From the IMG/VR virus record IMGVR_UViG_3300033074_000961: a stretch of 64,000 nt of DNA; one strand, written 5' to 3'. The position numbers and the translations under genes were made by a program. The notes below the pieces were generated by a model. It had not been told where the DNA came from, ran no database searches, and saw nothing but the letters and a program-made list of their open reading frames with translations. Of this stretch, positions 2,724-42,656 are shown piece by piece; position 1 is the first letter of the stretch, and each line of letters starts with the position of its first letter. This stretch comes from a virus. Its lineage: Duplodnaviria; Heunggongvirae; Uroviricota; Caudoviricetes.

Positions 2724-3686
2724 TTATTTGAAGAGTTCTGTAATACTATTGTTGTTGTGGGTTCCGAGGATAGCTTTACCAAACACGTCGGCAACACTTA
2801 CCACCGTGATGTACTCGGGAGTTTTCTTCATCCAATGGATTTCATCTTCCACAATTGAATCGGAGCAGAAGAAACGGGTGAATGTTCCCTTGCCCCAAGC
2901 TTCATGCAATCGTCCCGCACCCAACTCCGTAAGACAACCATGAGTCACGGCGAGATAAACATCCTTTGCCCCATTGTTCTTGCAACAATTGGCGGCACTA
3001 ATGAGAGTACCAGCAGACTCGGTAAGGTCGTCCAATACGAGCACGTTCTTGCCCTTCACGTCGCCCACGAACTGACTGACTTCAACATCAGTATCATTTT
3101 TGCGCTTCTTAACGATGAAGGCGAAGTCCACTCCATCCTTTTCTGAGAATTCCACTGCCTTTTTGATGCCTCCTGTGTCGGGAGCAACCACTACATCAAT
3201 CGAATACTTTTTCAATGCAGCGGAGAGAGTTGGTTGAAAGTAAAGGTGGTCCAGAGGAAGGTTGGTGAATCCTTGTACTTGCTGTGCGTGAAGGTCCATC
3301 GTAATGACACGATTGATTCCCGCAGCGGCAATAATATCAAGAACTAGCTTGGCAGAGATGGGGACTCGGGGTTTGTCTTTGCGGTCTTGGCGTGAATACC
3401 CAAGGTAGGGAATAACCGCAGTAATTCTGTCGGCAGAGGCACGGCGAGCAGCATCCGCCATGATAAGCAACTGCATCAGGTTATCATTGGCAGGTTGAGA
3501 AACCGCTTGCATCAAGAAAACGTCGGCACCCCGCACGTTCTCTTTCAGTTGGCAGTACCATTCACCCGAAGGAAACTGGTGATGATAGATTGCACCCCGA
3601 TTGATTGCATCGTGGCGAGCGGTTACGGATTTGGCAAGACGTTCACTCGCCTTACCAGCAAAGAGTACGCAACGTCGGTCTTTCAT
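2724..3686 (-). CDS. prs: ribose-phosphate pyrophosphokinase (PRPP synthetase)-family enzyme; could instead be an ADP-ribose pyrophosphokinase-type paralog
   Basis: Prs motifs DLHAQQVQGFF and VVAPDTGG; the 320-aa length is typical. Confidence 0.8.
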   Translation of the reverse strand: MKDRRCVLFAGKASERLAKSVTARHDAINRGAIYHHQFPSGEWYCQLKENVRGADVFLMQAVSQPANDNLMQLLIMADAARRASADRITAVIPYLGYSRQDRKDKPRVPISAKLVLDIIAAAGINRVITMDLHAQQVQGFTNLPLDHLYFQPTLSAALKKYSIDVVVAPDTGGIKKAVEFSEKDGVDFAFIVKKRKNDTDVEVSQFVGDVKGKNVLVLDDLTESAGTLISAANCCKNNGAKDVYLAVTHGCLTELGAGRLHEAWGKGTFTRFFCSDSIVEDEIHWMKKTPEYITVVSVADVFGKAILGTHNNNSITELFK

Positions 3687-9369: not shown

Positions 9370-9698
9370 CGTCGTTTCCTTCCGAGACGCATAAGATTGT
9401 GCATCTGCTTTTGTTCAAATATCTTTACCTGCAAGTGATGCCCTTCCTTAAACCTTTCGTCGGGAGCAGCAACCGCAGCACCGTCATAAGCAGCAAGCAC
9501 TTTCCTTACAGTATCTACCTTAATGGCGGCGAGTTGTTGAAGTTTGAACAACAAGGTCTCCGTTTGAGATTTATTCAACCCACGATGGACACAATGAAGG
9601 GCAATCCTGTGTTCAGGACTGCCCTTCTTTAGCAAATCCCCAGCCACGGCAGCAACTTCGTACTCCCGTTCTGTTAGGGGTTTGGCGTACTTATTCAC
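9366..9698 (-). CDS. hypothetical protein with possible C-terminal HTH (LTEREYEV)
   Basis: Weak similarity to LuxR / sigma region-4 HTH. Confidence 0.3.
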   Translation of the reverse strand: MNKYAKPLTEREYEVAAVAGDLLKKGSPEHRIALHCVHRGLNKSQTETLLFKLQQLAAIKVDTVRKVLAAYDGAAVAAPDERFKEGHHLQVKIFEQKQMHNLMRLGRKRR

Positions 9699-10470
9699 GG
9701 CGGAAGGTTGGGATTGGGGCCAACTTGTGCAGAGTGGCAGCGTGCCGAGTCGTGTAGATTTCCAGCACTTGCTTCTGCCGAGGGGTTAATCCTTCAAGCA
9801 GGACCGTGGAGTAGCACCCCTTGCCATCTTCCACCCACTTCATTGCCCATTCCAGTTCCTCGTACGATGCACCAATGGCATCTTCATCCGTGCGGGTGTC
9901 CGCCCACAGACCATCCGTAGGAACTGCCTCAGAGAGTTCTGGCAGCACGCCCAAGTCACGGCACATCTGCCGCACTTCGGTCTTGGTCAAGTCGGAGATA
10001 GGAGAAATGTCCACACCACCATCACCATACTTGGTGAAGAAACCGATACCAAAGTCTTCCACCTTATTGCCGGTGCCTACTACGAACGCACCCTTGCAGC
10101 ACGCCACTTGATAAAGAGCAATCATGCGAAGGCGACTCTTCGTATTGGCAAAGGCAAGGTCATTGTTGTAGTCAATGCGGACTTCTTCACGAAACGCTTC
10201 AAACGTAGTCGTAAGGTCAATCTTGTGGAAAACTACATTGTTGTAGTTATCCTGCAACCAGTCAATGTGCTTTTCACCACGACTGGTTTGGTCGCCCTTG
10301 GTTTGACATGGAAGAATGACGCAGTGGGTCGGGAGTCCCGTCATTGCACAGAGGGTGGACACCAATGCGGAATCAACACCACCCGATACGCCAATTACCC
10401 AACCTTTGGCACCATTCTTTTTTGCGTAGTTATTCAACCACGCCACGATTTCATTTGCTAGTTCTTTCAT
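9691..10470 (-). CDS. nadE: NH3-dependent NAD+ synthetase
   Basis: PP-loop GVSGGVDSALV; 259-aa length and overall NadE architecture. Confidence 0.85.
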   Translation of the reverse strand: MKELANEIVAWLNNYAKKNGAKGWVIGVSGGVDSALVSTLCAMTGLPTHCVILPCQTKGDQTSRGEKHIDWLQDNYNNVVFHKIDLTTTFEAFREEVRIDYNNDLAFANTKSRLRMIALYQVACCKGAFVVGTGNKVEDFGIGFFTKYGDGGVDISPISDLTKTEVRQMCRDLGVLPELSEAVPTDGLWADTRTDEDAIGASYEELEWAMKWVEDGKGCYSTVLLEGLTPRQKQVLEIYTTRHAATLHKLAPIPTFRRE

Positions 10471-10471
10471 A

Positions 10472-10681
10472 TTAGAAACACTCCGTCTTTTTTGTTACAC
10501 CGAATTTCTTCATTGTTCTCTTCATGTCCGCAACCGCATCCCGCTTACGTTTGAAGGGAAGTCGGTTGGTAATCCACGCATCAGCAAACATACCGGGACC
10601 AAACCAAATGGGACATGCCCATTCCCATTGCCTATCAAGGCGACGGTTGAGGGTTCTGCGATAGGAGACAATCTCTTTCAT
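10472..10681 (-). CDS. hypothetical small protein
   Basis: 69-aa ORF between nadE and pncB. Confidence 0.3.
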   Translation of the reverse strand: MKEIVSYRRTLNRRLDRQWEWACPIWFGPGMFADAWITNRLPFKRKRDAVADMKRTMKKFGVTKKTECF

Positions 10682-11874
10682 GCTCCAATCTCCTGTAATG
10701 CCCGTTGAATTGCAGCGGCATCGCCTGTGTGCTTGCCAGCGTCATCCGAGAGCTTGACCACGGGAATCATACCTTGCCCGAAGTCAGCAGCAGTCAGTTT
10801 GATAACCATATTCAGCGGTTTGACTCCAACATCGTTAGTGAAGTTCGTTCCGATACCACCAACCGGCTGAGCAACTTTGCGATACTTATGGTCAATCGCC
10901 ACATAGTTGTAGTTTTTGCCAGCCATCACTTGGTCCTTCGGGGCAACCCCGAGACTGTCACTGAACACGAGACGCTTACCAATGGGATTGATACGCATAC
11001 GAGCGTAGAACGGCAGTACCTTATTGTCTGCCCAATCATAGGGTACACCCGAGTCTTGCCGCAGTCCATCGTACAGGTGAGCATCGTACTTCTCAAACTG
11101 ACGAAGGAAAAAGTCGGTCGTGAAAGTATCACTAAGAGATACACCAACATCACCCTCAAAGTGCTCTGCCCACACTTTGCGCCACATTTTGTCTGCCATG
11201 CGAACACCGTACAGTGCCGACATTGCCATAATGCATTCGTGGGCGTATGTGCCATGAGGGGTCACACCATACTTGAAAGCGAAATAGGGATTGCTCGTGC
11301 CGAGGAATCCATTAAGCATACGCATCTGTTTAACGACGGCTTCTTGAATCCTCTTGGCGAAACGACGGCGAGTGCCGAAGTCAATCCAGTGGCATCCCTC
11401 AGTCTGTAGGAGCACGCCTTTGTTCTCAATCCGTTGTTCCCACTCAGCATCGGGTTCTTGTCCCGTCATAATGAAATACAACTCGGAAATGATTGCCATG
11501 AGTTTGACTTCCCAGTAAATCGTGCGATACCACGGACCACGGATTTTGATACGAAGGTCTCCACCCTCTTGGGTAATGGTCACTTCATTGGGATTCATCT
11601 GATACCCATACAACCATTCAACATAGGTCGGGCGCATGTAAGGAATCTTCTTGAGCCAATCTGCCTCAAGATTGGTTAGACCAATGTGAGACAGCAAGTT
11701 GATTTGATGCTGTAGGTTTTCGGCAAACCCCTCGGGAAACTGAGTTTTGCCCCGGTTGAAGAAGGTGTACTCCACAATGGCACGGGGAAACATATGGAAG
11801 ACCACAGACCCCATGTTAATCTTGTAGAGGTCATCGTCCAACATGCTTGTGATAATCGGGCCTTTCACGTTCAT
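10678..11874 (-). CDS. pncB: nicotinate phosphoribosyltransferase
   Basis: DLYKINM N-terminus and GTSNPYFAFKYG region typical of PncB; 398 aa. Confidence 0.8.
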   Translation of the reverse strand: MNVKGPIITSMLDDDLYKINMGSVVFHMFPRAIVEYTFFNRGKTQFPEGFAENLQHQINLLSHIGLTNLEADWLKKIPYMRPTYVEWLYGYQMNPNEVTITQEGGDLRIKIRGPWYRTIYWEVKLMAIISELYFIMTGQEPDAEWEQRIENKGVLLQTEGCHWIDFGTRRRFAKRIQEAVVKQMRMLNGFLGTSNPYFAFKYGVTPHGTYAHECIMAMSALYGVRMADKMWRKVWAEHFEGDVGVSLSDTFTTDFFLRQFEKYDAHLYDGLRQDSGVPYDWADNKVLPFYARMRINPIGKRLVFSDSLGVAPKDQVMAGKNYNYVAIDHKYRKVAQPVGGIGTNFTNDVGVKPLNMVIKLTAADFGQGMIPVVKLSDDAGKHTGDAAAIQRALQEIGA

Positions 11875-12204: not shown

Positions 12205-13925
12205 TTGCGTTTGATTTGATGAAAGCTGTTGCCATTGATAAAGAAAATGCCATCGCTGGTTGAGAACAACTTCATAGTGCTATCAAATGGAGGATTCTGC
12301 AACGTTTCAACCTGAGTGGCAGTGGCGAACAATTCCAATTCGTCGGGACTCGCCAGCAAAGCACACATACCATTCTCCATCACTGTGAAGTTGATAGTAT
12401 CATATGCCACGTCATCCACTTTGCGAACATCGCACGAGTTGTATGCCTTGTTGAAAATGATAATGAAGCGATCATATTGACCCTTCTTTTCACCGAGGAC
12501 CACAACTACATTCCGTTCTGCCTTGGCACCGACAATACGATACCCGTCCAACTGTGGGACGTGCTTGCTGAAACACGCACCTTGTTTGTATGGCAAGGTC
12601 AGATACATCTTGCCGAGCAAGTCCTGTACCACACAACCATCGTACATCTTGGAAGTAGTAACCGAGACGTTGGCAATTTCAATAGCACGACGAACCATTT
12701 TGTTGCCGAATGCCGTGAAGGAGTTCTCCATCAACTTACCGTGGGCAATGGTATAGATGCTGTTGTTCCTTGCGAACATTTCATTGCTCGTTGCCGTGCC
12801 AATAGGTTCACTAGCAGTAAGAGTCTTGAAGACTATCTTATTGCTATTGTCTTGTTGAGCAGTAATGAGAGTGCCATCCGATGCCGAGCAGAGAGTAATC
12901 TTCTTGGCATTATGCGTACCAATCTCTTTCTTGTTGGCATAGATATGGGTCTTAGTTGCCACGTAGTAGATGCCCAAGATTTGTTGAATTGCCAAGATAG
13001 GATTGGTATAGGCAGCGATTTCACTGACACCAATCTTATCCGTGCCTTGGATAGTGATAACTTGAGTGGGCACAAGCAAGGGCACACTACTATCTGCCAG
13101 CGGTGGAACACCACGCTCACCATTCAAGAACACTCGTTTGAACCAATCCAAGTGACGGCCCGGGATGACTTTGAAATCATTAACCGATGGAGGGACACGC
13201 ACTCCGCTATGGAATACGCTAATACCGTCGTCCATTTGCTTCGCCTTATCCTTGGGTTTGTAGTTGGGGTGAGTCCCACGATAAGGATGGATATTGGTAT
13301 AGAGCCAGAACGTCAGCACAGACCACGAGAACCAATCCGACTCAATGGTGGGATTGTAGTGCATAGTTCCACCCTTGTCAAAGGTAGTAACTTTCCTATC
13401 TCTCACCGAGTCCATAATAGCAGTTGCTCTGAACGATGGAGTGGAGTAACTATCCGTATCAATAAACCACGGCGTAAGATTGCTTCCCTTTTGTTCGGCA
13501 AGAATGTTCAACTCATTCAAGTCCACAATGAGACATTGAGCGGAGTGAACGTCGGCAACCACCTTCTGCATTTCTTTGACAAGGTGATTAACCATATGGA
13601 AGTCAATGTTGTTCGCATCCTTGAATGTGCGGGTGAAGAACTTCAAGAGCGGTTCAACGTTGTCCACGAAGCGGGTAGTGTACCCGAGCGGTTTGCCGTT
13701 CTTCGGGTCAAAGATGATTTCTTGTGGGATGACTACTTGGGGATTCTTAATCAATCCCAACTCCTGCATTTTCTTTGGCGGGAGCATCTTCTGGTCGGGG
13801 TCATGGTACAACTTATACGCCATGCCACTTTGGACATAGATTGCCGCTTCACCGCCAGCTGCCAAGTAGTTCTTGTCAGTAATGGTGATTACGCCACTGT
13901 TGCCTATTTTGACTTTCTGGTTCAT
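12201..13925 (-). CDS. protein-kinase-like (ePK/RIO/Kdo-like fold) protein with C-terminal extension
   Basis: Gly-rich loop AAGGEAAIYV, lysine in AYKLY, catalytic-loop-like IVDLNELNIL, FIDTDS (DFG-like). Confidence 0.5.
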   Translation of the reverse strand: MNQKVKIGNSGVITITDKNYLAAGGEAAIYVQSGMAYKLYHDPDQKMLPPKKMQELGLIKNPQVVIPQEIIFDPKNGKPLGYTTRFVDNVEPLLKFFTRTFKDANNIDFHMVNHLVKEMQKVVADVHSAQCLIVDLNELNILAEQKGSNLTPWFIDTDSYSTPSFRATAIMDSVRDRKVTTFDKGGTMHYNPTIESDWFSWSVLTFWLYTNIHPYRGTHPNYKPKDKAKQMDDGISVFHSGVRVPPSVNDFKVIPGRHLDWFKRVFLNGERGVPPLADSSVPLLVPTQVITIQGTDKIGVSEIAAYTNPILAIQQILGIYYVATKTHIYANKKEIGTHNAKKITLCSASDGTLITAQQDNSNKIVFKTLTASEPIGTATSNEMFARNNSIYTIAHGKLMENSFTAFGNKMVRRAIEIANVSVTTSKMYDGCVVQDLLGKMYLTLPYKQGACFSKHVPQLDGYRIVGAKAERNVVVVLGEKKGQYDRFIIIFNKAYNSCDVRKVDDVAYDTINFTVMENGMCALLASPDELELFATATQVETLQNPPFDSTMKLFSTSDGIFFINGNSFHQIKRK

Positions 13926-14701
13926 ACCACAATTGCCGCTACGGAAATATCGTCGGAATGCTTAATGCCTTCCTTCTCACATTTCCTTTTGAATGCCGCA
14001 AGACGACGGAGAACGAATTCGCCCTCGGTTGTCTTGTATCCCGTGAACTCGTCAACGAGGCTAGTCCATAGGATAGGTTCATTATCTGCACGACGAAAAC
14101 TATTGATACCATCCGAAATAACTGCAATGATGTCTCCCGGCTCCACGGTCGCATCAAAACTATATGGTTCAAGTGGCTTGGTGTTGACTTGAACAGTCTT
14201 GCCGAGGATAGTCACGGCGACTTCCTTCTTATTATCCTCTATGTTCTCGTAGGCTTGTCGCCTTAGAGGGTCAAGTTGATAAGCAAGGTAGTCAGGTGCT
14301 CCGCTAGTAAGATGGATATGGATACTATTGACGCCTAGTTTGGTTCTATGAACCAAGACACCATCACCATACATACGAGCAGTCAGTTTACCTTCCTTCA
14401 CCCACGCCACAAGCAACGTCGCATCCAATGCTTGAGAATGGAGATAAGGGAAGACATCAAATACTCGTTGGGCATTGTGGATAACATCCTGCCCCCACAG
14501 TTTGGCATCACTTTCCAATCCCAAACGAATCTGTCTCTTGGCAGACATGGCAAGACAACGAGCACCGAAGTCCACGTCGGGAGAAGCGGAGCATCCATCA
14601 CATACTACTGCATATGTCTTGCCTGCGATTTCCCCTGTGAGAGCATAGTCCTCACATACAATGTGGTCTTTGCCGATTTGATATGTACTGTTGGCGTTCA
14701 T
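13922..14701 (-). CDS. PP2C-family Ser/Thr protein phosphatase
   Basis: AVVCDGCSAS, VISDGI, DDISV metal-binding motifs. ATGA overlap with the kinase gene. Confidence 0.65.
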   Translation of the reverse strand: MNANSTYQIGKDHIVCEDYALTGEIAGKTYAVVCDGCSASPDVDFGARCLAMSAKRQIRLGLESDAKLWGQDVIHNAQRVFDVFPYLHSQALDATLLVAWVKEGKLTARMYGDGVLVHRTKLGVNSIHIHLTSGAPDYLAYQLDPLRRQAYENIEDNKKEVAVTILGKTVQVNTKPLEPYSFDATVEPGDIIAVISDGINSFRRADNEPILWTSLVDEFTGYKTTEGEFVLRRLAAFKRKCEKEGIKHSDDISVAAIVV

Positions 14702-17118: not shown

Positions 17119-17997
17119 TTACCAGTCAGTCGTGCGAGTGACCTTCATTCCCTTGCCAACCATTTCCTTCACGAAGTCCTGACCGAGCTTCTCAAACGTA
17201 CCCACGTTCGAGGACGTGTCTTCCAGAAGGGTGAACTTCTGAACTTGGTCAACGCCGAAGTTGGCGGCAATGTCACGGATGGTGTTCGCAACGCAGTGCG
17301 ACAATGCTTCACCCGTAATGAGGATTTCATCTGCCTCAGTAAGTGTATCAATGAGGGCAGTGTTGAGACCCGTGCTTGGGTCTTGGTCGTCCGGCACGTC
17401 AGCCATCACGCCCGAGTAGTGTTCCGTAAACAAATTGGAACCCTTGGCGACGAAGTTGACTCGTTGGAAGTCCGCTTCCCACTCATACAGAGCGGCGGCG
17501 ACAGACGGCACGATGGAGTGACCCCACGTACCAATGAGACAGTGCGGCGGCCAAATCACCAACACGTAGCGACCATTCTTCTTCAAGGTCTCCACGTAAT
17601 TGAGGGCACGGCCCTGCCACTTCGGATTGTAGGCACGCCACGTTCCATTCTTCACGTCATCCTCAGTAATGAGGGTGAAGGGATTGGGACGCTCGCCCTT
17701 GGAATTGACCCAGAAGGCGGGGTGAGCAATGTGTACCAACTGGTGAGAATCCAGTGTGCAGTGAATTTGCTCAATGCGTTTCTTGTTCTTGACGATGAAT
17801 TTCGCCAAGCGATCCATGTCCGCATCAGCACCAGCAACTACCAGTGCGCCTTTCTCGTGCCCGAAGCGTGCAGTTTTGGCGTCTGCCCCGGGAGCCAGCG
17901 GAATGCAAAAATCATTCTGCGGATCGATTGTTATTAGATGTACGTTTTTTGTTGCCATAACTATGTGTCTTTCTTGTTTGTTTTCAGTCCCCGACAC
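17119..17997 (-). CDS. pncA: nicotinamidase (isochorismatase family)
   Basis: LITIDPQNDFC signature of PncA-type hydrolases; catalytic Cys region HCL. Confidence 0.65.
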   Translation of the reverse strand: MSGTENKQERHIVMATKNVHLITIDPQNDFCIPLAPGADAKTARFGHEKGALVVAGADADMDRLAKFIVKNKKRIEQIHCTLDSHQLVHIAHPAFWVNSKGERPNPFTLITEDDVKNGTWRAYNPKWQGRALNYVETLKKNGRYVLVIWPPHCLIGTWGHSIVPSVAAALYEWEADFQRVNFVAKGSNLFTEHYSGVMADVPDDQDPSTGLNTALIDTLTEADEILITGEALSHCVANTIRDIAANFGVDQVQKFTLLEDTSSNVGTFEKLGQDFVKEMVGKGMKVTRTTDW

Positions 17998-18014: not shown

Positions 18015-18944
18015 TTACGGTAAGCGTAGTATCTCATTGTTGAAGTAATCGTTCAACATATGGAGCAGCGGACGATGGTTTTCCGAAACCTCCGCTTCGC
18101 TTAATTCTGCAAAGTTTTTCCAAGTGACATACTCAATGTCATCTGCCGCCTTGGGTGTACCGCCATTGTATTTCAATACGAAAAGGGCGGTCATAATCTT
18201 GTCTTGCTCCGAGCGGTAACGCCAATCATTAACGAAAGTGCTACCAACATACTTCGGTTCAATCACGTCAAGTCCCGTCTCTTCTTTGACTTCACGGATA
18301 GCTGCCTCTTCCATGCTCTTATCTTGAGCGGGGTCTGTGAACCCACCGGGGAAGCAGAGGGTAGAACGATTGGGTTTACGAGCAAGTAGAAGGCGTTTGT
18401 TATCGTAATCAATCACCGCCATGTCCACTGTCAACTTGAACGATGGGAATTGATTTTGGACTGCGTAAACAATACCTTCACGAAAGTCTTGGGTGGGTTT
18501 GGCCTTGATGCCGATGCGTCGGCGAATTTCACTCGCCGAAATGAATTTGCTAGGCACAAGTTCAATGGTGGGAAACCCACCCTTGTAGGAATTGATGAAA
18601 CTATCCCGACTGCCATACATGACCGCTTTCAATTTGGGTCCGATGGTCTGCGAAATGAGCTTGTCAAGGTTCTTGCTCCAAAGGTCGTTGTCGCCAACGT
18701 CATTCAGATAGAGAACTTCAACATCCCGATACTTTTCCTCAACCATTGCCTTGCGGATGCCGAAGTCAAACGGGTTGTTGGCAGTACACTTGAGCGGGGA
18801 TAGACCGAGAACGATGATTACTCGGGGATGGGCGTTGCGGACAATCTCGATGATTTCTTGATGTCCCTCGTGGAGGAATGGCGATTGGAATCTCGCCACA
18901 ATAACGCCAACGTCTGCATTTTGTTCAGTCACTTTCATAGTCAC
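18015..18944 (-). CDS. nadM: bifunctional NMN/NaMN adenylyltransferase – Nudix (ADP-ribose pyrophosphatase) NadM-type
   Basis: N-terminal ARFQSPFLHEGH (HxGH NMNAT motif as in NadM). C-terminal Nudix box REVKEETGL. Confidence 0.75.
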   Translation of the reverse strand: MTMKVTEQNADVGVIVARFQSPFLHEGHQEIIEIVRNAHPRVIIVLGLSPLKCTANNPFDFGIRKAMVEEKYRDVEVLYLNDVGDNDLWSKNLDKLISQTIGPKLKAVMYGSRDSFINSYKGGFPTIELVPSKFISASEIRRRIGIKAKPTQDFREGIVYAVQNQFPSFKLTVDMAVIDYDNKRLLLARKPNRSTLCFPGGFTDPAQDKSMEEAAIREVKEETGLDVIEPKYVGSTFVNDWRYRSEQDKIMTALFVLKYNGGTPKAADDIEYVTWKNFAELSEAEVSENHRPLLHMLNDYFNNEILRLP

Positions 18945-19065: not shown

Positions 19066-19296
19066 TCAAGTTCTTTCTGCAACTTCTTCAAGTTGCTCTG
19101 CCGTAAGGGGTTTCCATCCTTCGATTTTTCCAGTGTCGTTGTCAATGGTGAGGCGAACATAGTCACCACCACCAATGCCAAGGTTGCGAGGCACTTCCCC
19201 ATTATATTCAAGTTCTGTCTCAAGGACTTTCATCCCGAAGCAGTCACTACACTTTGCCACGATTCGTATTTTCATATCAGTTTGTTTGTAGGGCAA
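19066..19296 (-). CDS. hypothetical protein
   Basis: 76-aa ORF. Confidence 0.3.
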   Translation of the reverse strand: MPYKQTDMKIRIVAKCSDCFGMKVLETELEYNGEVPRNLGIGGGDYVRLTIDNDTGKIEGWKPLTAEQLEEVAERT

Positions 19297-19942
19297 CGAG
19301 GCGGTCCAAACCTATGGCAACCTCGAAAACGATACCGTGCTCCCAATCACTACGCACCGAGCACCCCGCCACTTCCAACCCATTCAACTCCCAATCAAGG
19401 GTCTTGCTGGAATAGTGTGGTAATTCTTTTGCTTCAACAATTGTGCCGCCATAGCGTCCCGTCAATGCTGCCAATGCTTCCTCAAGGTACGGAGCTTTTG
19501 TGCCGAGCGAAGTAAAGAGCTGAAACTCCATCTGGTAAAATTGAATTAAACGCAGCTGCGATGCCCTCATGGTGTCGGCACACTTCTCGTCACGGAAGCT
19601 ACACCCGACTTGCCACATGCAGAAAGGTAGATATTTCTTCATTAGTGCCTTGTCGGGGAACTTCTGATCGAAGGATTCGTACGTGCCCACGGTTGTCTCA
19701 GGACGAAGAAAAAGGTTGCGCTCGCTCTTGACTTCAAGCAACTCAAACCCTGTAGCAATGTGAGAAGCAAGACGCTCCCGAGGGACAAGTATTGGCGTCT
19801 CACAACGCTCCATCTTGACGGCGGGATTTAGATTGCGCCAAGTGTCAATAAGCAGAGCGGGAATCTCCCGAATCAAAGACTCACGGCGAGTGATTTCAAA
19901 CTCCGACCAACTGACAGTAGCGTTTGTGAAAATAGGTTTCAT
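19277..19942 (-). CDS. class IIa aminoacyl-tRNA-synthetase-like catalytic core (HisRS/HisZ-like), no anticodon-binding domain
   Basis: Motif 1-like FLRPETT, motif 2 CSFRDE...QFYQMEF, motif 3 AIGLDRLVAL. Confidence 0.5.
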   Translation of the reverse strand: MKPIFTNATVSWSEFEITRRESLIREIPALLIDTWRNLNPAVKMERCETPILVPRERLASHIATGFELLEVKSERNLFLRPETTVGTYESFDQKFPDKALMKKYLPFCMWQVGCSFRDEKCADTMRASQLRLIQFYQMEFQLFTSLGTKAPYLEEALAALTGRYGGTIVEAKELPHYSSKTLDWELNGLEVAGCSVRSDWEHGIVFEVAIGLDRLVALQTN

Positions 19943-20247
19943 TATTTCCTACCAAGCAGTCGCATGGGAATGCGCCAGTACATCATTGCGAACCACACGA
20001 GCACAGTCAACACTGAAGAAAGCAAGTGGAGTCCATCTGTGGCGGCAATGGGGAAGGATAAAGGTTTGCCAGTGAAGAAGAGGATGGACACAATAAAGAG
20101 TACTTTGGTCACACCAAAGAGAAGAAATGAGGCGAAGAACCACCCCAAGAATCCACCGAGGCCGTCAACGGGTTTCCACGTCCCATGTTTCCGCATACAG
20201 AATGCCAGCGTGAACATGAACACAACGATAAAAAACATGTCTTGCAT
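19942..20247 (-). CDS. membrane protein
   Basis: Three hydrophobic helices. A σ70-like promoter lies upstream. Confidence 0.45.
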   Translation of the reverse strand: MQDMFFIVVFMFTLAFCMRKHGTWKPVDGLGGFLGWFFASFLLFGVTKVLFIVSILFFTGKPLSFPIAATDGLHLLSSVLTVLVWFAMMYWRIPMRLLGRK

Positions 20248-20288: not shown

Positions 20289-20655
20289 AAAGTATGACGG
20301 GTTGCATTTCTTCCCTAAGTAGGTCGGAAGGAGCAATGTAGCAGAGACCTATTTTGTAGTCCGCATATGCCACTGTTCGCTTCTGGAGGTAAAGTTTGAC
20401 GTTGGCACTGTCAAAACTACGATATTCAAGGTAGAACACTACATTATTGGTCTGTCGGTATGCTTCCGCAACAGGGATAAAGAAGTGTTTCCATTGAATA
20501 TGCTTTTGTTGAAATTCCACATAGGGTCCACGCTTACCAATCACTACACGGGTATATCCTGTAGCGAGCAACAGACCTGTAGCACTGTAGAACTTCAAGT
20601 CATCACTGCCCGAGTCCACATTGATTAACAAACTATTGCGTATTCGTTGACTCAT
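20281..20655 (-). CDS. hypothetical protein (internal start of ORF 20281..20760)
   Basis: Protein-like. Start trimmed to MSQRIRN to reduce overlap with the PRTase gene. Confidence 0.35.
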   Translation of the reverse strand: MSQRIRNSLLINVDSGSDDLKFYSATGLLLATGYTRVVIGKRGPYVEFQQKHIQWKHFFIPVAEAYRQTNNVVFYLEYRSFDSANVKLYLQKRTVAYADYKIGLCYIAPSDLLREEMQPVILSP

Positions 20656-21097
20656 CTTTTTCCCAAGGGTACACAATCCATTGGTCTTTATGTTTTGTTT
20701 CAACAAAGAAGTCGGGTTTGCAGTCAGGACTACTTTCGGGACACCAGTGGAGGGCAGCAACCCACATATTATCCGTGCGGACTACTTGCTTCAAGAACTT
20801 GATAGTTTTCCCACTGTCCACAATGTCATCCACCACGAGGAAAGGAACACCATCAAACATTTGTGCGAAGTGATACCACCGTTGGTCTCCTATAGCAGGA
20901 GCATTTCCATCACGAAAGGATATGTTGACAGAAGTGTGTTGTTTATTCAAAGCATAGGATAACCATCGAGAAAGCGGAAGTCCACCACGCTCAATGCCTA
21001 CAACCCATTGGAAGCGATTTTGAATCTTACCTAATTGAGCACAAAGATTTTGTGCCATCCGAGAGAAGTCTTCGTTGGTAAGGTATAACTTAGTCAT
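20633..21097 (-). CDS. gpt: type I purine phosphoribosyltransferase, xanthine-guanine PRTase (Gpt)-like
   Basis: IERGGLPL, PRPP-binding FLVVDDIVDSGKT, C-terminal QWIVYPWEKD resemble Gpt. Confidence 0.6.
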   Translation of the reverse strand: MTKLYLTNEDFSRMAQNLCAQLGKIQNRFQWVVGIERGGLPLSRWLSYALNKQHTSVNISFRDGNAPAIGDQRWYHFAQMFDGVPFLVVDDIVDSGKTIKFLKQVVRTDNMWVAALHWCPESSPDCKPDFFVETKHKDQWIVYPWEKDESTNTQ

Positions 21098-21504
21098 GAG
21101 AGTGTTGTAACAATATCTTTTGCTAACTGCAATAATTCATCTTCTGAGAACATTGCTTTAGCGAGGTTGGCATGATAATCAACAAAGCGAAGGTTAGAAA
21201 TATCATTAGTCCCACCACGACTTTTGGGAACAGAATGATCAATAGATATGTTTTTTCTAGTAAGGCGTCGTCCAGTCAAAGGACAAATCAATTGTTGCCG
21301 TTTGGCAATTTTCCATAAATCCCATGCCCCAATGCCTATACTGTACTTTCGCCGAAGGATTTCAGATAGATATTTGAAATACCTCTTTTGCTTGTGGCGT
21401 TTAGCTTTGCGACGAATTCGGGCAATATACTTAGGAGTATGCTTAATGCGATGATACTTTCGCCTTGCTTTTGCTCTCCGCTTGTCAATTTCTTCCTGAG
21501 ACAT
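21094..21504 (-). mobile_element. free-standing HNH endonuclease
   Basis: CPLTGRRL...IDHSVPKSRGGTNDISNLRFVDYHAN. Confidence 0.65.
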
Positions 21505-21604: not shown

Positions 21605-22771
21605 TTACAAAAGTTCTTTTTCAAAGTATCCATTGACGTACCCTTCAATGTACTTAGCGTGAGCGGGACTGTCTGCCCCTTGCACGTCTCCCGCAAGGAA
21701 ACGAGCAGAGTTCAAACGGTCCTTGTCATAGATACCCGCTTGCATTCCTTCGAGATACTTTTCCTCGTTGTCATCATCGTCGGAAAGGACACCGGCATCT
21801 TGTGCTGCCTGCACCAGTTCATTTGAATTTGGTGAAAGCGAATCTGCCAGTGCAACACCACCAATCACGGCGGGATCACCATTAGGCGCATCAAGACCGG
21901 GAGTCTCCATCGCACGGCATTGTTCACAATCACACCCACAGTTGGGACAGTCAGTACCGCCACAAGTGCAAGAGTTGTCAGTATCAAACTCGGGGTCTCG
22001 GGGTTCAAATTCCGAAGTATAAGTATCAGGCATCGGTCCAGTATATTCACCAATTACCCGATATTTGCAGCAACGAAGTTTCTGGCATGAGCAGTCGGAA
22101 GGCACAGAAACCACGTCGGCGGGGTCAATTTCCACTAGAATCACACGCTCGCCCCAACCACGGGCATAGGCGAGAGAACCAGCGTGCAACCCGAAGGAGC
22201 ATCCATTGCGGAAGTCGTCATCGCACGAGGACCGTTCGATTTCGATAGTTTTCCCGATTTCATTCAAGATATGTCCCTCGGAGTCCGTGACACCTTGAAG
22301 CACCACAGTCTTGGTGTTACCCATCACCGAGTAGAAAGACGAGCGGACACCTTTGTAGGCAATAATCATACCCTCGGGAGTCAGGGGCATGTTTTTGTGC
22401 TCAAGAAAGTTGTACAATTCGTTGATGGCTCGAGCGGAAGGATTCTTCAACTTACGTGCCATGTAATTGGCAATCGGCCTGAAGGGGAGACCATCACGCA
22501 AGAAAGCAAGCACCCGATCCGAATCAACCCCGTGCATCGGACGACCAGCATACGTGACACCTGTAGAATTCACGGAGAGCAACCCCACCGTGTAGTCTTC
22601 CATGACTGCCTTGAGAGAGATAAGGGAGCGAAGCACTGCTTCGTTTCCCGCTTTGAATGCATCCACAATCTCCGTCCACTTGGGATGGTCATTGCGAGCA
22701 GTGAGAATTTCGGAACCACCATTCAATACGAGGGTGAGCGTTCCATTCGTCAAAGACATTGCTGTAATCAT
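21605..22771 (-). CDS. hypothetical protein with Cys-rich segment; possible rIIB-like partner of rIIA (by position only)
   Basis: 388 aa, immediately downstream of the rIIA-like gene. Confidence 0.3.
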   Translation of the reverse strand: MITAMSLTNGTLTLVLNGGSEILTARNDHPKWTEIVDAFKAGNEAVLRSLISLKAVMEDYTVGLLSVNSTGVTYAGRPMHGVDSDRVLAFLRDGLPFRPIANYMARKLKNPSARAINELYNFLEHKNMPLTPEGMIIAYKGVRSSFYSVMGNTKTVVLQGVTDSEGHILNEIGKTIEIERSSCDDDFRNGCSFGLHAGSLAYARGWGERVILVEIDPADVVSVPSDCSCQKLRCCKYRVIGEYTGPMPDTYTSEFEPRDPEFDTDNSCTCGGTDCPNCGCDCEQCRAMETPGLDAPNGDPAVIGGVALADSLSPNSNELVQAAQDAGVLSDDDDNEEKYLEGMQAGIYDKDRLNSARFLAGDVQGADSPAHAKYIEGYVNGYFEKELL

Positions 22772-23056: not shown

Positions 23057-25480
23057 TCAAGCGGCAACTTCGGACTCTTCAACTTTCTCTTCCACAACGG
23101 GTTGTGGAGGAGCTGGCGGGGTCATGTCCCGAGTCAAGTCAATGAACAAGTCCATTGCGTTGACATACTTGGCGACTTTCGCCGCTTCTTCAGGCTTGGC
23201 ATAGTAATCGTTTTCCAAGTTGCTGAAATTGATATAAGGATACATGGCTTTGGCATCTTCCGTAACTTTCTCAAAGTCAATCGTGCCCACAGTCTCACCC
23301 TTAACCTTATCCCAGTAGTGCAGCTCCTTGAGGGCATTCACCAGCTTGAGATAGTTGTCATAATTTTTGTCGCTTCCCGTAGCGATAAGTTTCAACATGA
23401 GACTGTTCTTGTCCATGATTTGTGGAATAAGCAAATCTGCCCACGCCTTTTCAACTACCGTGCTACCATTGAATGCTTCGGCATCCACGAGAGAAGAAAC
23501 ATTCGTGATACCGGGAAGTGCTTCTTCAATGACAGACCAAACGTTGGTCCAATCGCCACAAGAAACCGCTTCCTTGAACCATTTCGCTTCACTGGTTTGC
23601 TTGCCCACGATGTACACCCGAGGCACGTCCAGACCAAGTTCATCCACCAGAACCTTGATGGCTTCGGCAACTTCGTCAGCATCCCGATGCCAGCCATTGC
23701 TCAACTTAACCGTAACACTCGGGTCTTCGGAAGTGTGCCAGCGACGACGGCGACGAGCACGAGTAACTTCACCAATCTCCACGAAGTAAGCACCCTCTTC
23801 GATTTCACGAATGGGCACTTCCATTTCTTCAACGGAGACTTCACCATCAAAATCCATATAACGGAGCGTGCGAGTACCCCCGCCACCGCCACCGTAGGAA
23901 CGAGACACTTTGTTGACATTATTCCACGTTTTCGCAGCGGGAAGGATTTCAGATAGAATCAACACGGGCACAGTATCAAAATGATACTCTGCGAAGAAAG
24001 CATCCCGCACAGTCTGGTTGACGAAGTTGAGGACATGCACCGTGCGAATCTTGGAACCATCCTGAAGAATGAGATACCTAGCGGCAACGGACTGTCCATA
24101 CTTCGCACCAGTATCATTGATGATAACAGCAACTTGATGGGAAGCAACGATGCGGTTGGCACTTTCAGAAGTGCAACGATTCATCTTCGCCCGTTTCTTC
24201 TTCTTGCGATACGTCACCATCACGGGGATAGACGGATTGTGCTTGTGCTTCTGAATGCCGGGGAAGTTAGTGACATCATTATCAAAACGATTGATGCCAT
24301 TAAATCCAGCGTCGTCAATCACAATATCGTTCCACTTGAATGACCCACGGAAGTTGATCTCGATGGACGTGAGATTGCCATCCAAAACCTTAATGCGCTC
24401 AATCGTGTCGGCATCCTCGCCTTTTTCCAGCTCAAGCATACCCGTGCCGAAAAGGGAGTTGTAAATCATTTTCGCTTCCCACACGGTCTTGGCATCGGCG
24501 AACTTCGCTTGGAAGGACTCCTGAATCTTAGCGAAGATGCTTTCAATGCGGTCCATGAGTGCCTTGATAGTGAAGTCGGTGTACTCAAGGGACTCCCGAG
24601 AGTCAACGAACTGAACTTCACCCATCTTGAAGAACAAGGTCACGTCATTGTTCTGGAGAAGGTCAAAGAGACAACGCTTTTGAGCAGTCAGAGACATGCG
24701 CTTGCTAAGGACGTTCCAATCAATACGGTAAGGAACACCGCCCATGAATGCCACGCCCACGGCAGAACCTTCCGAGCGAGGGCGAACGTTCCAACCCTCG
24801 CCTTGCAACGTCGGCGGGGTATTGCGGAATTTCATCATACGATTGAAATGGCTGTCTTCCAAGCGATTGATGGTAGGGAGGACTTCCCAATACTTAAAGT
24901 AATCGGCAGCCTCTTGATGGAAAGTCCACAGAGAAGATTGCTTCACGGGGATGCAGACTTCAATGCCAGAGGGTTCATCCGAAGGAGTGCGGGACAATTC
25001 ATAGACCGTGTGAAGTTTGGTGGAGTCGCCCTTGACACAGTTGTAAACAGCCTTCTCACCATTCACCCAAGACGTAACCGTGAAAGAATCGGCATGAGCA
25101 AATCCTGCCTTGCACCCGTAACCGAGTACGCCGTTCTCGGCAGCAGAGTTGCGCTTGGTGGACAATCCCATGACGCAATAGATGCCACGGATTTGGTCCT
25201 TGGTCAGTCCAGAACCGAAGTCACGGACTTTGAAGGTGAAATCTTCCATCGTCGGGAGAGTAACGATGACTTCGGAAGTTGGTTTGCCAGCGACAATGTG
25301 AGCATCGTTGGCGTTGTTGGAGTATTCACGGACAGATGCCAGCTCTTTGCGAGTGTACATCTTATCCGAGAGGGATTGCATGATACGGGCCTTGGTGTCA
25401 TCCGTAAAGTCGAAGTTTCCAACCACTTCAACCCCCATACCTTGCGTTTCAATCGTTTGCGGCGTTTCGTTCGGAATCAT
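23057..25480 (-). CDS. rIIA: rIIA-like protein with N-terminal GHKL (Bergerat-fold) ATPase domain
   Basis: N-box SNNANDAH, G1 VRDFGSGL, G2 LGYGCKAGF; 807 aa. The pattern matches my recollection of T4 rIIA (ITNMIDAH / CRDFGPG / FGLGSKSPF). Confidence 0.55.
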   Translation of the reverse strand: MIPNETPQTIETQGMGVEVVGNFDFTDDTKARIMQSLSDKMYTRKELASVREYSNNANDAHIVAGKPTSEVIVTLPTMEDFTFKVRDFGSGLTKDQIRGIYCVMGLSTKRNSAAENGVLGYGCKAGFAHADSFTVTSWVNGEKAVYNCVKGDSTKLHTVYELSRTPSDEPSGIEVCIPVKQSSLWTFHQEAADYFKYWEVLPTINRLEDSHFNRMMKFRNTPPTLQGEGWNVRPRSEGSAVGVAFMGGVPYRIDWNVLSKRMSLTAQKRCLFDLLQNNDVTLFFKMGEVQFVDSRESLEYTDFTIKALMDRIESIFAKIQESFQAKFADAKTVWEAKMIYNSLFGTGMLELEKGEDADTIERIKVLDGNLTSIEINFRGSFKWNDIVIDDAGFNGINRFDNDVTNFPGIQKHKHNPSIPVMVTYRKKKKRAKMNRCTSESANRIVASHQVAVIINDTGAKYGQSVAARYLILQDGSKIRTVHVLNFVNQTVRDAFFAEYHFDTVPVLILSEILPAAKTWNNVNKVSRSYGGGGGGTRTLRYMDFDGEVSVEEMEVPIREIEEGAYFVEIGEVTRARRRRRWHTSEDPSVTVKLSNGWHRDADEVAEAIKVLVDELGLDVPRVYIVGKQTSEAKWFKEAVSCGDWTNVWSVIEEALPGITNVSSLVDAEAFNGSTVVEKAWADLLIPQIMDKNSLMLKLIATGSDKNYDNYLKLVNALKELHYWDKVKGETVGTIDFEKVTEDAKAMYPYINFSNLENDYYAKPEEAAKVAKYVNAMDLFIDLTRDMTPPAPPQPVVEEKVEESEVAA

Positions 25481-37707: not shown

Positions 37708-39006
37708 TCATACTGCAATAGGTGCTTTGATAGCGGGGTGAGACTTATAGTCCACCAATTGTATGTCCTCAAACTTGAAATCCATCAGATTGCGGACATT
37801 GGGGTTGATGACTAACTTGGGCAGAATCTTGGGCGTTCTGCTTAGTTGTTCCTTGACTTGTTCCAAATGATTCTCATAGATATGCAAGTCTCCATAGGTA
37901 TGAGTGAATACTCCCGGCACCATATTGACACAATGAGCGATCAATGCAGTCAGTAGGCAATAGGACGTGATATTGAAAGGTACACCGAGGAAGGTGTCAC
38001 AACTGCGTTGGTAGAGCAAGCAATTAAGCCTTCGGCGAGGAACACCTACATTATCCAAATTCTTATGTTGATCTTCTTCCGTTTTACCGAGGTATTTGGG
38101 GAGCAATCCATACTTGCCATTATGATACACTTCGATTCTTTCTGCTATTGACAGAACTTCGGTATGAAAATGAAACATACAATGACATGGAGGTAGAGCA
38201 CAATGGTCAACCCAATAAGGATGCCAAGCACTAACAATTATGCGACGGTCATCGGGATTGGTCTTGAGCTTATCTACAACTTTCTTGAGTTGGTCCACTG
38301 TTCCATATTGGGTAGAGTCTAGTGGGTTATCGGCATTTCGTGGGACATAATAAGGAAATGCTCTCCACATTCCACCATAAGTTCCTTCCCCAAGTTCGCC
38401 CCACTTCTCAGCAAACTTGGCGTCGGTCTTAATGCGGTGAATGAATTCCGCCTGTGTATATTGCTCTGGTTCTGGACCGTGATGATGTTTGGTAAAGTCG
38501 GTAGTGCGTGTTCTTTCCTTGTTATACCAATCAACATATCGTTTATACGCCCATTCATCCCAGATATGAACGTCATTGTCCACAAGGTATTTGATGTTAG
38601 TATCCCCACGGATGAACCACAGCAATTCATGGACGATTGCTTTGAAGAAAATCTTCTTGGTAGTAAGAATAGGGAAGGCATCAAGGTCAATGTCGAACTT
38701 CGCTTGTGCTCCAAAGACCCCAATGGTATCAACCCCTGTACGATTCTTCTTACGTTTCCCTTCACGGAGAATAAGATTCAACAAATCATTGTATTCCGAA
38801 TCTACATGATTGTAAAATTGAATGACTTCTTCACAGGGAAGACATGGATGAACTTCTAGTCCACAGTTTGAACAGAGTTCTCTATCAATCTCTTCCTTTA
38901 CAACTTTGGGTAGAGATTCTTCAACACCCAGCTTTTGTGCAAGAGTCTTGAGCATCGCTTTTTCGTCGTTGGTTAATTCACTCATTTCCAGTACTTGGTT
39001 ATCCAA
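37708..39006 (-). CDS. thyA: thymidylate synthase family enzyme (ThyA / dNMP hydroxymethylase-type) with ~100-aa N-terminal Cys-containing extension
   Basis: FKAIVHELLWFIRGDTN, IVSAWHP, LPPCH active-site motif. N-terminal CSNCG...CLPCEE. Confidence 0.7.
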   Translation of the reverse strand: MDNQVLEMSELTNDEKAMLKTLAQKLGVEESLPKVVKEEIDRELCSNCGLEVHPCLPCEEVIQFYNHVDSEYNDLLNLILREGKRKKNRTGVDTIGVFGAQAKFDIDLDAFPILTTKKIFFKAIVHELLWFIRGDTNIKYLVDNDVHIWDEWAYKRYVDWYNKERTRTTDFTKHHHGPEPEQYTQAEFIHRIKTDAKFAEKWGELGEGTYGGMWRAFPYYVPRNADNPLDSTQYGTVDQLKKVVDKLKTNPDDRRIIVSAWHPYWVDHCALPPCHCMFHFHTEVLSIAERIEVYHNGKYGLLPKYLGKTEEDQHKNLDNVGVPRRRLNCLLYQRSCDTFLGVPFNITSYCLLTALIAHCVNMVPGVFTHTYGDLHIYENHLEQVKEQLSRTPKILPKLVINPNVRNLMDFKFEDIQLVDYKSHPAIKAPIAV

Positions 39007-41864: not shown

Positions 41865-42656
41865 TCATTTTGGATATTCAGGTATCATTGCAAGGATTTT
41901 ATCCTTATCTTCGGTAAACTTCCACGCACCCTTGGAAACCCATCTAGTGCGCTCAACGGTGTTGTCTTGAATTTGAGCTTCAAAACTCTCTTTCACAATG
42001 AGACGCCCGTTCTTCTCACCATCGGTGTAATCCGTGGCCCAGTTCTTACCCGCTTGGTGAATCATCTCATGCTTGTCCGAAGTGGACTTGCCGTGAAGCT
42101 CCTTGTGCGAGTACAGGGATTGAGCAACCATTGAGACAGAGTTGCGAGCACAATCTTGATTACGCCAGATGAAGTAGTTCATCACTTCAACTCTGTCAGG
42201 AATGGTGAATACACGGGCATCAAAGAATGCCAGATGCTTTCGCATCCTCGCTTCTTTCAAATCCATTGGCAGTGTTTGAGTAATCTTAAACGCTCTCTCA
42301 AGCCGACATTGATTGAATTCCGCAGTCATGATAGATGCCGCCACAGAACACATTTTCTGTAGGTTGCCGTCAAACCATGCACAAGTACCAATGTCAACGA
42401 AGTCGGTCAAAAGTACACTGATCTCGTCAGATTGGGTATAGGCGAAGACCGCCCCCTGAAGTTCTGGGAGCATCGCAATGATTGCGGCGTCAATGTCCTC
42501 AAAGAGTCCTTTGTCAAAAGGTTTCTCAAGTCCTCGGGTGTACGTATGAAATGCCTTACCATCCAGACGGATGATTGTGTAAGTGCGTCTTGGCAGTAAG
42601 AACCGAGTACGGTCCTCATACTGCCCCTTCATTCTGTCGCCAAGTGCGTCTTGCAT
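41865..42656 (-). CDS. Thg1-like protein (tRNA-His guanylyltransferase / 3'-5' nucleotide polymerase family)
   Basis: RLDGKAFHTYTRGLEKPFD, AYTQSDEISVLL, FFDARVFTIP, NYFIWRNQDCARNSVSM follow the Thg1 family motif pattern. Confidence 0.6.
   Translation of the reverse strand: MQDALGDRMKGQYEDRTRFLLPRRTYTIIRLDGKAFHTYTRGLEKPFDKGLFEDIDAAIIAMLPELQGAVFAYTQSDEISVLLTDFVDIGTCAWFDGNLQKMCSVAASIMTAEFNQCRLERAFKITQTLPMDLKEARMRKHLAFFDARVFTIPDRVEVMNYFIWRNQDCARNSVSMVAQSLYSHKELHGKSTSDKHEMIHQAGKNWATDYTDGEKNGRLIVKESFEAQIQDNTVERTRWVSKGAWKFTEDKDKILAMIPEYPK

Follow-up and report, generated by a model that had tools for sequence, protein, structure and literature searches.

What is a 221-residue protein that holds little more than the catalytic core of a class II aminoacyl-tRNA synthetase doing in a phage genome? 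The locus that raises this question lies in the IMG/VR record IMGVR_UViG_3300033074_000961, a member of Caudoviricetes, whose whole 64,000-nucleotide stretch was analysed here and is called the window. A sequence-only reading of the window had described the protein, referred to below as the mini-synthetase, as a stand-alone class IIa core of HisRS/HisZ-like type. The description as a stand-alone class IIa core without an anticodon-binding domain held up, whereas the kinship to HisRS and HisZ did not. Judged by its sequence, the mini-synthetase is a stripped-down catalytic core of glycyl-tRNA synthetase (GlyRS). Giant phages and bacteria of the Rhizobium/Caulobacter type share the large, uncharacterised family of which it is a member. 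We propose that it is a free-standing, minimal GlyRS-derived enzyme that would charge tRNA-Gly, a reading to which we assign a probability of roughly 0.45.

The open reading frame (ORF) at 19277..19942, on the minus strand like all features of the protein given below, is complete, with an ATG start, 221 codons and a stop. An AGGA Shine-Dalgarno sequence, read directly from the DNA at 19947..19950 on the same strand, precedes the start by 4 nucleotides (nt), and the start codon shares 1 nt with the stop of an upstream 101-residue ORF (TAATG) within a long run of co-directional genes. A word-indexed search recovered 215 homologs, those listed being 209-256 residues long, together with an identical 221-residue protein on a 94.6-kb JGI metagenome contig. 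In comparisons with six homologs of 62-87% amino-acid identity, pS was 0.75-0.92 and pN 0.10-0.30. Because synonymous sites are saturated while non-synonymous differences remain low, this ORF is a real gene under strong purifying selection, in agreement with the initial gene call.

By sequence profile and by structure, the closest relative of the mini-synthetase is the alpha2-type (dimeric, class IIa) GlyRS. The best NCBIfam match, both for the window protein and for eight diverse family members, was the dimeric GlyRS. With a profile built from 82 members, all 14 alpha2 GlyRS sequences in the PDB ranked first (Mycobacterium tuberculosis GlyRS, E 7e-22; Thermus thermophilus GlyRS, E 1e-16), the next family being ProRS at E 4e-7, and hhalign to genuine GlyRS gave a probability of 99.6% across residues 41-217. 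The scores nevertheless fall under the GlyRS equivalog cutoffs, with 44.4 bits vs 312 for NF003211 and 33.6 vs 243.3 for TIGR00389, and other family members behave alike, the scores lying 5-20 times below them. The Pfam score is below threshold, and no model in the PHROGs and PADLOC libraries matches the protein. The top Foldseek matches were pyrrolysyl-tRNA synthetase (PylRS) enzymes without an N-terminal domain, at 16-20% identity. A better structural match to ligases of the BirA/LplA type, raised beforehand as a possible counter-indication, was sought and not found; synthetases match better.

The protein shows the class II aminoacyl-tRNA synthetase fold, with an antiparallel beta-sheet core, motifs 1-3 and the arginines of motifs 2 and 3. 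Residues 1-40 (19823..19942) form a family-specific N-terminal segment (NATV.W.E.EI.RRE, with an invariant R20) where GlyRS has an N-terminus bearing the YxG loop for tRNA recognition; in the hhalign alignment, homology with GlyRS begins only at residue 41. The strand of class II motif 1 follows at residues 41-54 (19781..19822; KMERCETPILVP, with P50) and aligns to GlyRS 'MEIETPTLTP'. In the structure model a helix at residues 14-38 precedes strands 43-46 and 52-54 in this region, and the true motif 1 comprises that helix and the strand ending E48-T-P50. The tetrapeptide LRPE, which had been taken for motif 1, belongs instead to the RPE(T) loop, which lies between motifs 1 and 2 and binds the amino acid (LRPETT, residues 79-84, 19691..19708), as placed by ungapped hidden Markov model (HMM) alignments to 8t5n, 1ati and 2pme. 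Motif 2 (SFRDE...QFYQMEFQ, residues 107-144, 19511..19624) was located from alignments and from the structure model, in which its loop (residues 121-129) is disordered. Motif 3 (EVAIGLDRLVA, residues 207-217, 19292..19324) aligns to N. equitans GlyRS 'LELSFGVDR' and to 'VEASFGLDR' of the GlyRS-type protein P0264. Both motifs had been correctly recognised from the sequence, as FRDE..Q..EF and GLDRLV, and they are invariant in 37 close homologs; the class II active-site arginines, R117 of motif 2 and R214 of motif 3, are in place as well.

Two further segments identified from the alignments are characteristic of GlyRS. LPHYS (residues 174-178, 19409..19423) corresponds to the GlyRS lid motif [AS]HY[AS], which its sequence P-H176-Y177-S178 still fits, although the first position is Pro where GlyRS has Ala or Ser. 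Residues 183-199 (19346..19396; D183, E190, S195, R197, D199) fit the GlyRS signature E..G...R.D. In a set of 82 members with 27-59% identity to the window protein, R20, P106, Q111, R117, E119, F135, E139, Y177, D183, R197, D199, E207 and R214 are invariant, and the positions conserved in at least 90% include L79, R80, E82, T83, T84, S115, Q137, Q141, P175, E190, S195, G211 and D213.

Since the numbering of PDB chain 8t5n_A equals that of the native M. tuberculosis enzyme plus 13, the HMM alignments could be compared with published residue roles, which were taken from PMC12208437 for M. tuberculosis and from PMC4938167 in human numbering. The human equivalences were obtained independently, through an ungapped alignment of profile positions 74-142 to residues 238-306 of human GlyRS. 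Most of the mapped M. tuberculosis contacts have an identical counterpart in the mini-synthetase. On the ATP side, R117 corresponds to Arg197, which contacts the alpha-phosphate and the glycyl carbonyl, E119 to Glu199, which contacts adenine N6, F135 to Phe212, which stacks on adenine, and Q137 to Gln214, which contacts the ribose and the glycyl carbonyl (PMC12208437). This glutamine is typical of bacterial alpha2 GlyRS, its human counterpart being Met (PMC12208437). E190 matches Glu284, a contact of ribose O3' and of the metal (Mg2+), R214 matches Arg331, the motif 3 arginine, and Y177 matches Tyr264 of the lid. On the glycine side, E82, E139 and E207 correspond to Glu165, Glu216 and Glu324 (human E245, E296 and E522), the triad that holds the glycine amino group; R197 corresponds to Arg291 (human R410), which bridges this triad, and A209 to Ala326 (human S524). 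The last of these blocks pro-S substituents and so excludes alanine and larger amino acids (PMC12208437), and the published determinants of glycine specificity are the Glu triad, Arg410 and a small residue (Ser or Ala) at position 524 (PMC4938167). All five pocket positions (E82, E139, E207, R197, A209) map and are conserved, and the predicted pocket of the mini-synthetase is thus the glycine pocket of alpha2 GlyRS. Among the positions that differ, the buried, protonated Glu218 of M. tuberculosis is replaced by the isosteric Q141, and the position of Thr209 is occupied by L132 (Val in human).

What the protein lacks is as characteristic as what it keeps. It terminates at residue 221, 4 residues past the motif 3 helix, and its lack of an anticodon-binding domain, proposed at the outset, is borne out by the absence of any match to the HGTP model PF03129, which does match P0264. 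The YxG loop and the insertion domain are absent too, with GlyRS homology beginning only after the N-terminal segment and with only about 24 residues separating motif 1 from LRPETT, and the beta-hairpin of GlyRS is also missing. P0264 is a genuine GlyRS of 365 residues that retains the anticodon-binding domain without an insertion domain; the insertion domain is therefore dispensable in a natural GlyRS. Five family members (P0202, P0218, P0221, P0224 and P0237) carry a helical insert of 75-85 residues exactly at the insertion-domain site, and these members, together with P0264, look like intermediate stages of domain loss. No fused carrier or acceptor domain was found in the longer family members. 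Their additional domains, considered as a clue to the acceptor, were set aside because they are merely helical inserts or parts of genuine compact GlyRSs.

The family is large and nearly uniform in size. Searched exhaustively against 1.84 billion cluster representatives, a family profile returned 449 proteins at E<=1e-3, of them 138 at E<=1e-10; almost every full-length match has 210-260 residues, and no full-length GlyRS occurs among the best 150. The mini-form is carried by 20 phage records, all with genomes of 300-636 kb, namely those of Caulobacter Bertelyvirus phages, Brevundimonas phages, Sinorhizobium phage Phosso, Xanthomonas phage XbC2 and two uncultured huge phages. Full-length alpha2 GlyRS is nearly absent among phage records and absent in all 20 of these. 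Annotations in the phage records conflict, ranging from 'hypothetical' and 'aminoacyl-tRNA synthetase' to 'serine-tRNA synthetase' and 'RNA synthetase class II', and RefSeq names a family protein 'aminoacyl--tRNA ligase-related protein'. In IMG/VR, 139 stretches encode members. Unexpectedly, so do 119 stretches of cellular genomes, mostly from Rhizobium, Devosia, Phenylobacterium, Caulobacter and Mesorhizobium and often deep within megabase contigs; a homolog also occurs in the culturable phage-host pair of Caulobacter phage CcrSC and C. vibrioides CB15. Searched for near-identical DNA among cultured phages, the region gave no match, which places this phage lineage far from isolates. Literature searches on GlyRS-like paralogs, truncated phage synthetases and the RefSeq name found no description of a GlyRS-derived stand-alone core. 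In a 2022 review of synthetase paralogs, the glycine entry comprises only yeast GlyRS2 and the ligases of SerRS fold that load amino acids onto a carrier protein (aa:CP ligases), with no GlyRS-derived stand-alone core.

Genomic context offers a further indication of function. All-against-all ORF clustering of 88 viral loci, by BLAST and with Pfam checks of cluster representatives, and inspection of 80 bacterial loci revealed no neighbour gene conserved across the family. The clearest context signal is linkage to tRNA arrays: among 60 dereplicated viral loci, tRNA genes lie within 10 kb in 27, within 1 kb in 17 and within 150 nt in 8. The commonest species nearby is tRNA-Gly (22 of 178 tRNA genes), and in three loci (L055, L076 and L082) 35-58 nt separate the end of such a gene from the downstream start codon of the mini-synthetase. 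These 22 nearby tRNA-Gly genes have U73 in 21 cases, G1:C72 in 21, C2:G71 in 20 and G3:C70 in 17, and 21 of them encode the CCA end.

In the mechanism that we propose, ATP-Mg2+ and glycine would first be bound in the GlyRS-like pocket and glycyl-adenylate (Gly-AMP) would be formed; that the mini-synthetase activates glycine in this way is, on the predicted pocket, highly probable. The glycyl group would then be passed to the 3' CCA end of tRNA-Gly, and we hold the chances that the acceptor is a tRNA to be somewhat short of even. Because there is no anticodon-binding domain, recognition would be blind to the anticodon and confined to the acceptor arm (G1:C72, C2:G71, G3:C70 and U73), and because no dedicated partner gene exists, the enzyme would act alone, probably as a homodimer formed via motif 1. 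The outcome would be an auxiliary, anticodon-blind glycine charging for the phage and for some Alphaproteobacteria, independent of the host GlyRS, which in most Proteobacteria is a heterotetramer of alpha2beta2 type. With still less assurance, one may suspect here the smallest natural aminoacyl-tRNA synthetase, a homodimer of about 220 residues per chain that would charge tRNA-Gly by its acceptor arm alone, dispensing with an anticodon-binding domain, an insertion domain and a partner subunit. On this reading, its place in the tRNA islands of jumbo phages would serve to make glycine charging host-independent or insensitive to anticodon-loop damage, and in Rhizobiales and Caulobacterales it would be retained as a second GlyRS unrelated to the first.

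Several observations point to a tRNA as acceptor, namely the linkage to tRNA islands, the acceptor-arm elements retained by the nearby tRNA-Gly genes, the lack of a partner gene and of fused acceptor domains, the absence of full-length alpha2 GlyRS from the phages with the mini-form, the dispensability of the insertion domain, the precedent of PylRS and the motif 2 loop, which aligns to that of GlyRS without gaps. In GlyRS, this loop is one of the tRNA-recognition loops (PMC12208437). Other observations weigh against charging of tRNA-Gly. Three tRNA-contacting elements of alpha2 GlyRS are gone: the anticodon-binding domain, the YxG loop and the insertion domain, from which the mycobacterial enzyme draws a Phe for stacking on A76 of the tRNA (PMC12208437). 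Elements that engage A76 and the major groove are lost. The enrichment of tRNA-Gly is only about two-fold and rests in part on related phages; over half of the 60 viral loci have no tRNA gene within 10 kb, and there is none in the 64 kb of the window. The bacterial homologs are solitary among housekeeping genes, with a tRNA nearby in only 6 of 80 loci. To our knowledge, moreover, the characterised stand-alone class II cores (AsnA, HisZ, PoxA/EpmA and the aa:CP ligases) use acceptors other than tRNA or act as regulators.

That precedent suggests that the protein might instead be a glycine-activating ligase which, through Gly-AMP, would serve an acceptor such as a protein, a carrier thiol, a nucleotide or other metabolite, or a nucleic-acid base, by analogy with PoxA/EpmA (elongation factor P, EF-P), the aa:CP ligases (phosphopantetheine) and AsnA (ammonia). 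We consider this, the main rival, less likely than charging of tRNA, since neither the 87 viral nor the 80 bacterial loci contain a carrier protein, a transferase or any other gene conserved alongside, the 76-residue ORF over the 3' end of the gene has neither a homolog nor features of an acyl carrier protein (ACP), the longer members have no fused acceptor domain, and the physical linkage is to tRNA arrays. In addition, the substrate of Mom is Gly-tRNA rather than Gly-AMP, and a conventional NadE encoded in the window makes a role in the amidation step of nicotinamide adenine dinucleotide (NAD) synthesis unnecessary. A protein without any transfer step, either a HisZ-like sensor or regulator responding to glycine or ATP or a maker of dinucleotides derived from Gly-AMP or ATP such as diadenosine tetraphosphate (Ap4A), is improbable. 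Alpha2 GlyRS can indeed make Ap4A by direct condensation of ATP, but glycine-independent synthesis of Ap4A needs no Glu triad, R197 or A209; the invariance of all catalytic and glycine-binding residues would be unexpected in a purely regulatory protein, and the associations with neighbouring genes involve whole 'metabolic islands' that are not conserved across the family.

The sequence-only reading had also linked a histidine-related function to a gene of the Thg1 family (tRNA-His guanylyltransferase/3'-5' polymerase) in the window (41865-42656, minus strand; Pfam E 5e-27). The class IIa fold is indeed common to HisRS and HisZ, and the hisS model does match the mini-synthetase weakly (E 1.5e-4), but only over its N-terminal half and with 20.9 bits vs a cutoff of 286.75. 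GlyRS models and structures match best at every level, the pocket is the GlyRS glycine pocket, and Thg1 is separated by 22 kb and does not recur as a neighbour at other loci, so that this explanation is effectively refuted.

The mini-synthetase lies outside the canonical GlyRS, HisZ, aa:CP ligase, PoxA and BirA/LplA families. With alpha2 GlyRS of M. tuberculosis and T. thermophilus it shares homology from motif 1 through motif 3, the ligands of ATP, Mg2+ and glycine (among them the Glu triad, the bridging Arg, the counterpart of Ala326 and the bacterial-specific Gln214), the HY[AS] lid, the E..G...R.D signature and the gap-free motif 2 loop. It differs in its length (221 residues vs 442-693 in the PDB chains), its new N-terminal 40 residues, the exchange of the buried Glu218 for Gln and the loss of the YxG loop, insertion domain, beta-hairpin and HGTP domain. 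In its predicted first half-reaction it resembles GlyRS, but the missing domains and loop, together with scores that fall short of the equivalog models, set it apart from a canonical GlyRS. PylRS enzymes without an N-terminal domain, such as those of M. alvus and ISO4-G1 (about 270-275 residues), are likewise bare class II catalytic domains of comparable size, and they work as complete synthetases that leave the anticodon unread, which shows that nothing beyond such a core is needed for a full synthetase; they belong, however, to another subclass, act on another amino acid and retain additional elements that bind the tRNA core.

The aa:CP ligases Bll0957 and Atu2573 are also truncated class II synthetase homologs from Alphaproteobacteria without a tRNA-binding domain, and Bll0957 is counted among the ligases that add glycine. 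They are, however, zinc-dependent proteins of ~300 residues that originate from methanogen-type SerRS, and in the original work they are reportedly encoded beside their carrier protein, whereas the mini-synthetase has GlyRS ancestry, no evident zinc site and no carrier gene nearby. HisZ, the regulatory and non-catalytic subunit of ATP phosphoribosyltransferase, is a HisRS paralog, while the mini-synthetase has neither the profile nor the pocket of HisRS/HisZ and keeps all catalytic residues invariant. PoxA/EpmA (GenX) differs as a paralog of class IIb LysRS, of ~325 residues and specific for beta-lysine and EF-P. The GlyCA 'urzyme' fragments of type-B GlyRS are likewise tiny class II constructs that activate glycine, and weak acylation of tRNA-Gly was reported for them (PMC11602164). 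These derive from the unrelated alpha-subunit of the alpha2beta2-type enzyme, and their authors regard them as a probable contaminant of the databases (99.75% identity with a Streptococcus gene) rather than a conserved natural family (PMC11602164). What is new and notable among stand-alone class II cores is the combination of very small size, a fully intact active site, GlyRS ancestry and wide spread in jumbo phages and Alphaproteobacteria. Other very small phage proteins (185-217 residues), all uncharacterised, have a class-II-synthetase-like fold at only 14-15% identity to this one: BFVD A0A2I7SAH4, A0A141HRQ2, A0A292GIB7 and K7QJG2 (Escherichia phage phAPEC8). They could be additional families of mini synthetase-like proteins.

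Time and again, new biology has emerged from truncated synthetase paralogs, such as the modification of EF-P, the loading of carrier proteins and the regulation of the histidine pathway. The present family is abundant and highly conserved, with active-site residues that appear intact, and yet it is invisible to curated models. The synthetases of a huge-phage survey were validated with TIGRFAM HMMs, and the mini-synthetase scores far under the TIGRFAM cutoff for GlyRS; since PHROGs and PADLOC offer no match and Pfam is sub-threshold as well, censuses of phage synthetases based on such cutoffs probably miss the family. If charging of tRNA is its function, nature would have supplied a near-minimal synthetase, with relevance to how early synthetase evolution is modelled and to the building of compact orthogonal charging systems, and it would show the takeover of glycine charging by giant phages. 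If the acceptor is another molecule, a new glycylation pathway common to phages and plant-associated bacteria would come into view. For a protein of 25 kDa, the choice between tRNA and another acceptor is directly testable.

The remaining neighbours vary from locus to locus. The most frequent ones at viral loci are a calcineurin-like phosphoesterase (11 loci), NMNAT-Nudix (8) and a NAMPT-sized cluster (7), the latter annotated by Pfam as NAMPT/NAPRTase in locus L006, followed by an RnlA-type RNA ligase (6), a DUF2828/DUF7788 protein (6) and a PNKP-type phosphatase (4). The DUF2828/DUF7788 protein, possibly a TROVE/Ro-like protein with a VWA domain, is encoded in the window at 50958-52514 (minus) and recurs near the mini-synthetase in L020, L022, L023, L025, L026 and L072; the RNA ligase, the PNKP-type phosphatase and, at some loci, RtcB-like genes recur as neighbours too, which together suggests an RNA-maintenance neighbourhood. 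The small flanking ORFs of the window (76 and 101 residues) were rejected as partners or carrier proteins, having no homologs even where the synthetases of relatives are 79-87% identical and no Pfam or PADLOC matches. Membership in a defence or anti-defence system was also discarded, in the absence of PADLOC matches.

A conserved bacterial operon was ruled out, as contexts differ between genera and include murein transglycosylase, DD-carboxypeptidase, glutamate synthase and acyl-CoA dehydrogenase. Rhizobium homologs (L107 and L125) occupy syntenic chromosomal positions beside peptidoglycan enzymes and glutamate synthase, and on the Devosia plasmid NZ_CP104964.1 the homolog (13802-14557, L168) adjoins a HipA-HTH toxin-antitoxin pair, with no theme common to the genera. 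Two observations concern the tRNA islands. In L004, a 264-residue ORF at 201-995 matches only the AlaRS catalytic core (tRNA-synt_2c) and stands in a tRNA array with a homolog of the mini-synthetase; it is a second truncated class II synthetase within one tRNA island. Near the gene in three other loci (L005, 12238-12312; L042, 12400-12475; L087, 9533-9608) are tRNAs with a CUA anticodon, of amber-suppressor type and called 'tRNA-Pyl' by ARAGORN, which hints at stop-codon recoding in those three phages.

The window also encodes a complete Preiss-Handler set for NAD salvage, all on the minus strand (2724-3686, 9691-10470, 10678-11874, 17119-17997, 18015-18944 and 20633-21097), whose members are phosphoribosyl pyrophosphate (PRPP) synthetase, the NAD synthase NadE, the nicotinate phosphoribosyltransferase PncB, a PncA-like isochorismatase, a bifunctional NMNAT-Nudix protein and a small type-I phosphoribosyltransferase. 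This set is probably a counter-measure to NAD-depleting host defence. NAD genes flank the mini-synthetase in the window, in CcrSC and in loci L003 and L006; because the window holds the full salvage set including NadE, this neighbourhood is best read as co-location in a metabolic island. A role of the mini-synthetase itself in NAD metabolism was rejected on the same ground and because the association is missing at most loci.

Farther from the locus, a distant rIIA (23057-25480, minus; sharing 29% identity with Salmonella phage rIIA across 55% of its length) adjoins an rIIB-like gene (21605-22771, minus). The thymidylate synthase at 37708-39006 (minus) has 432 residues, of which residues 71-432 span a 266-position Pfam profile; the protein thus has a 70-residue N-terminal extension and ~95 extra internal residues, which could be an insertion or an intein-like element. 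A divergent pair of N6/N4 DNA methyltransferase genes (53600-54385, minus; 54455-55276, plus) marks the point where the coding strand switches. Finally, an HNH endonuclease ORF (21094-21504, minus) overlaps the start of the phosphoribosyltransferase gene and may be a mobile homing-endonuclease insertion in the metabolic gene block.
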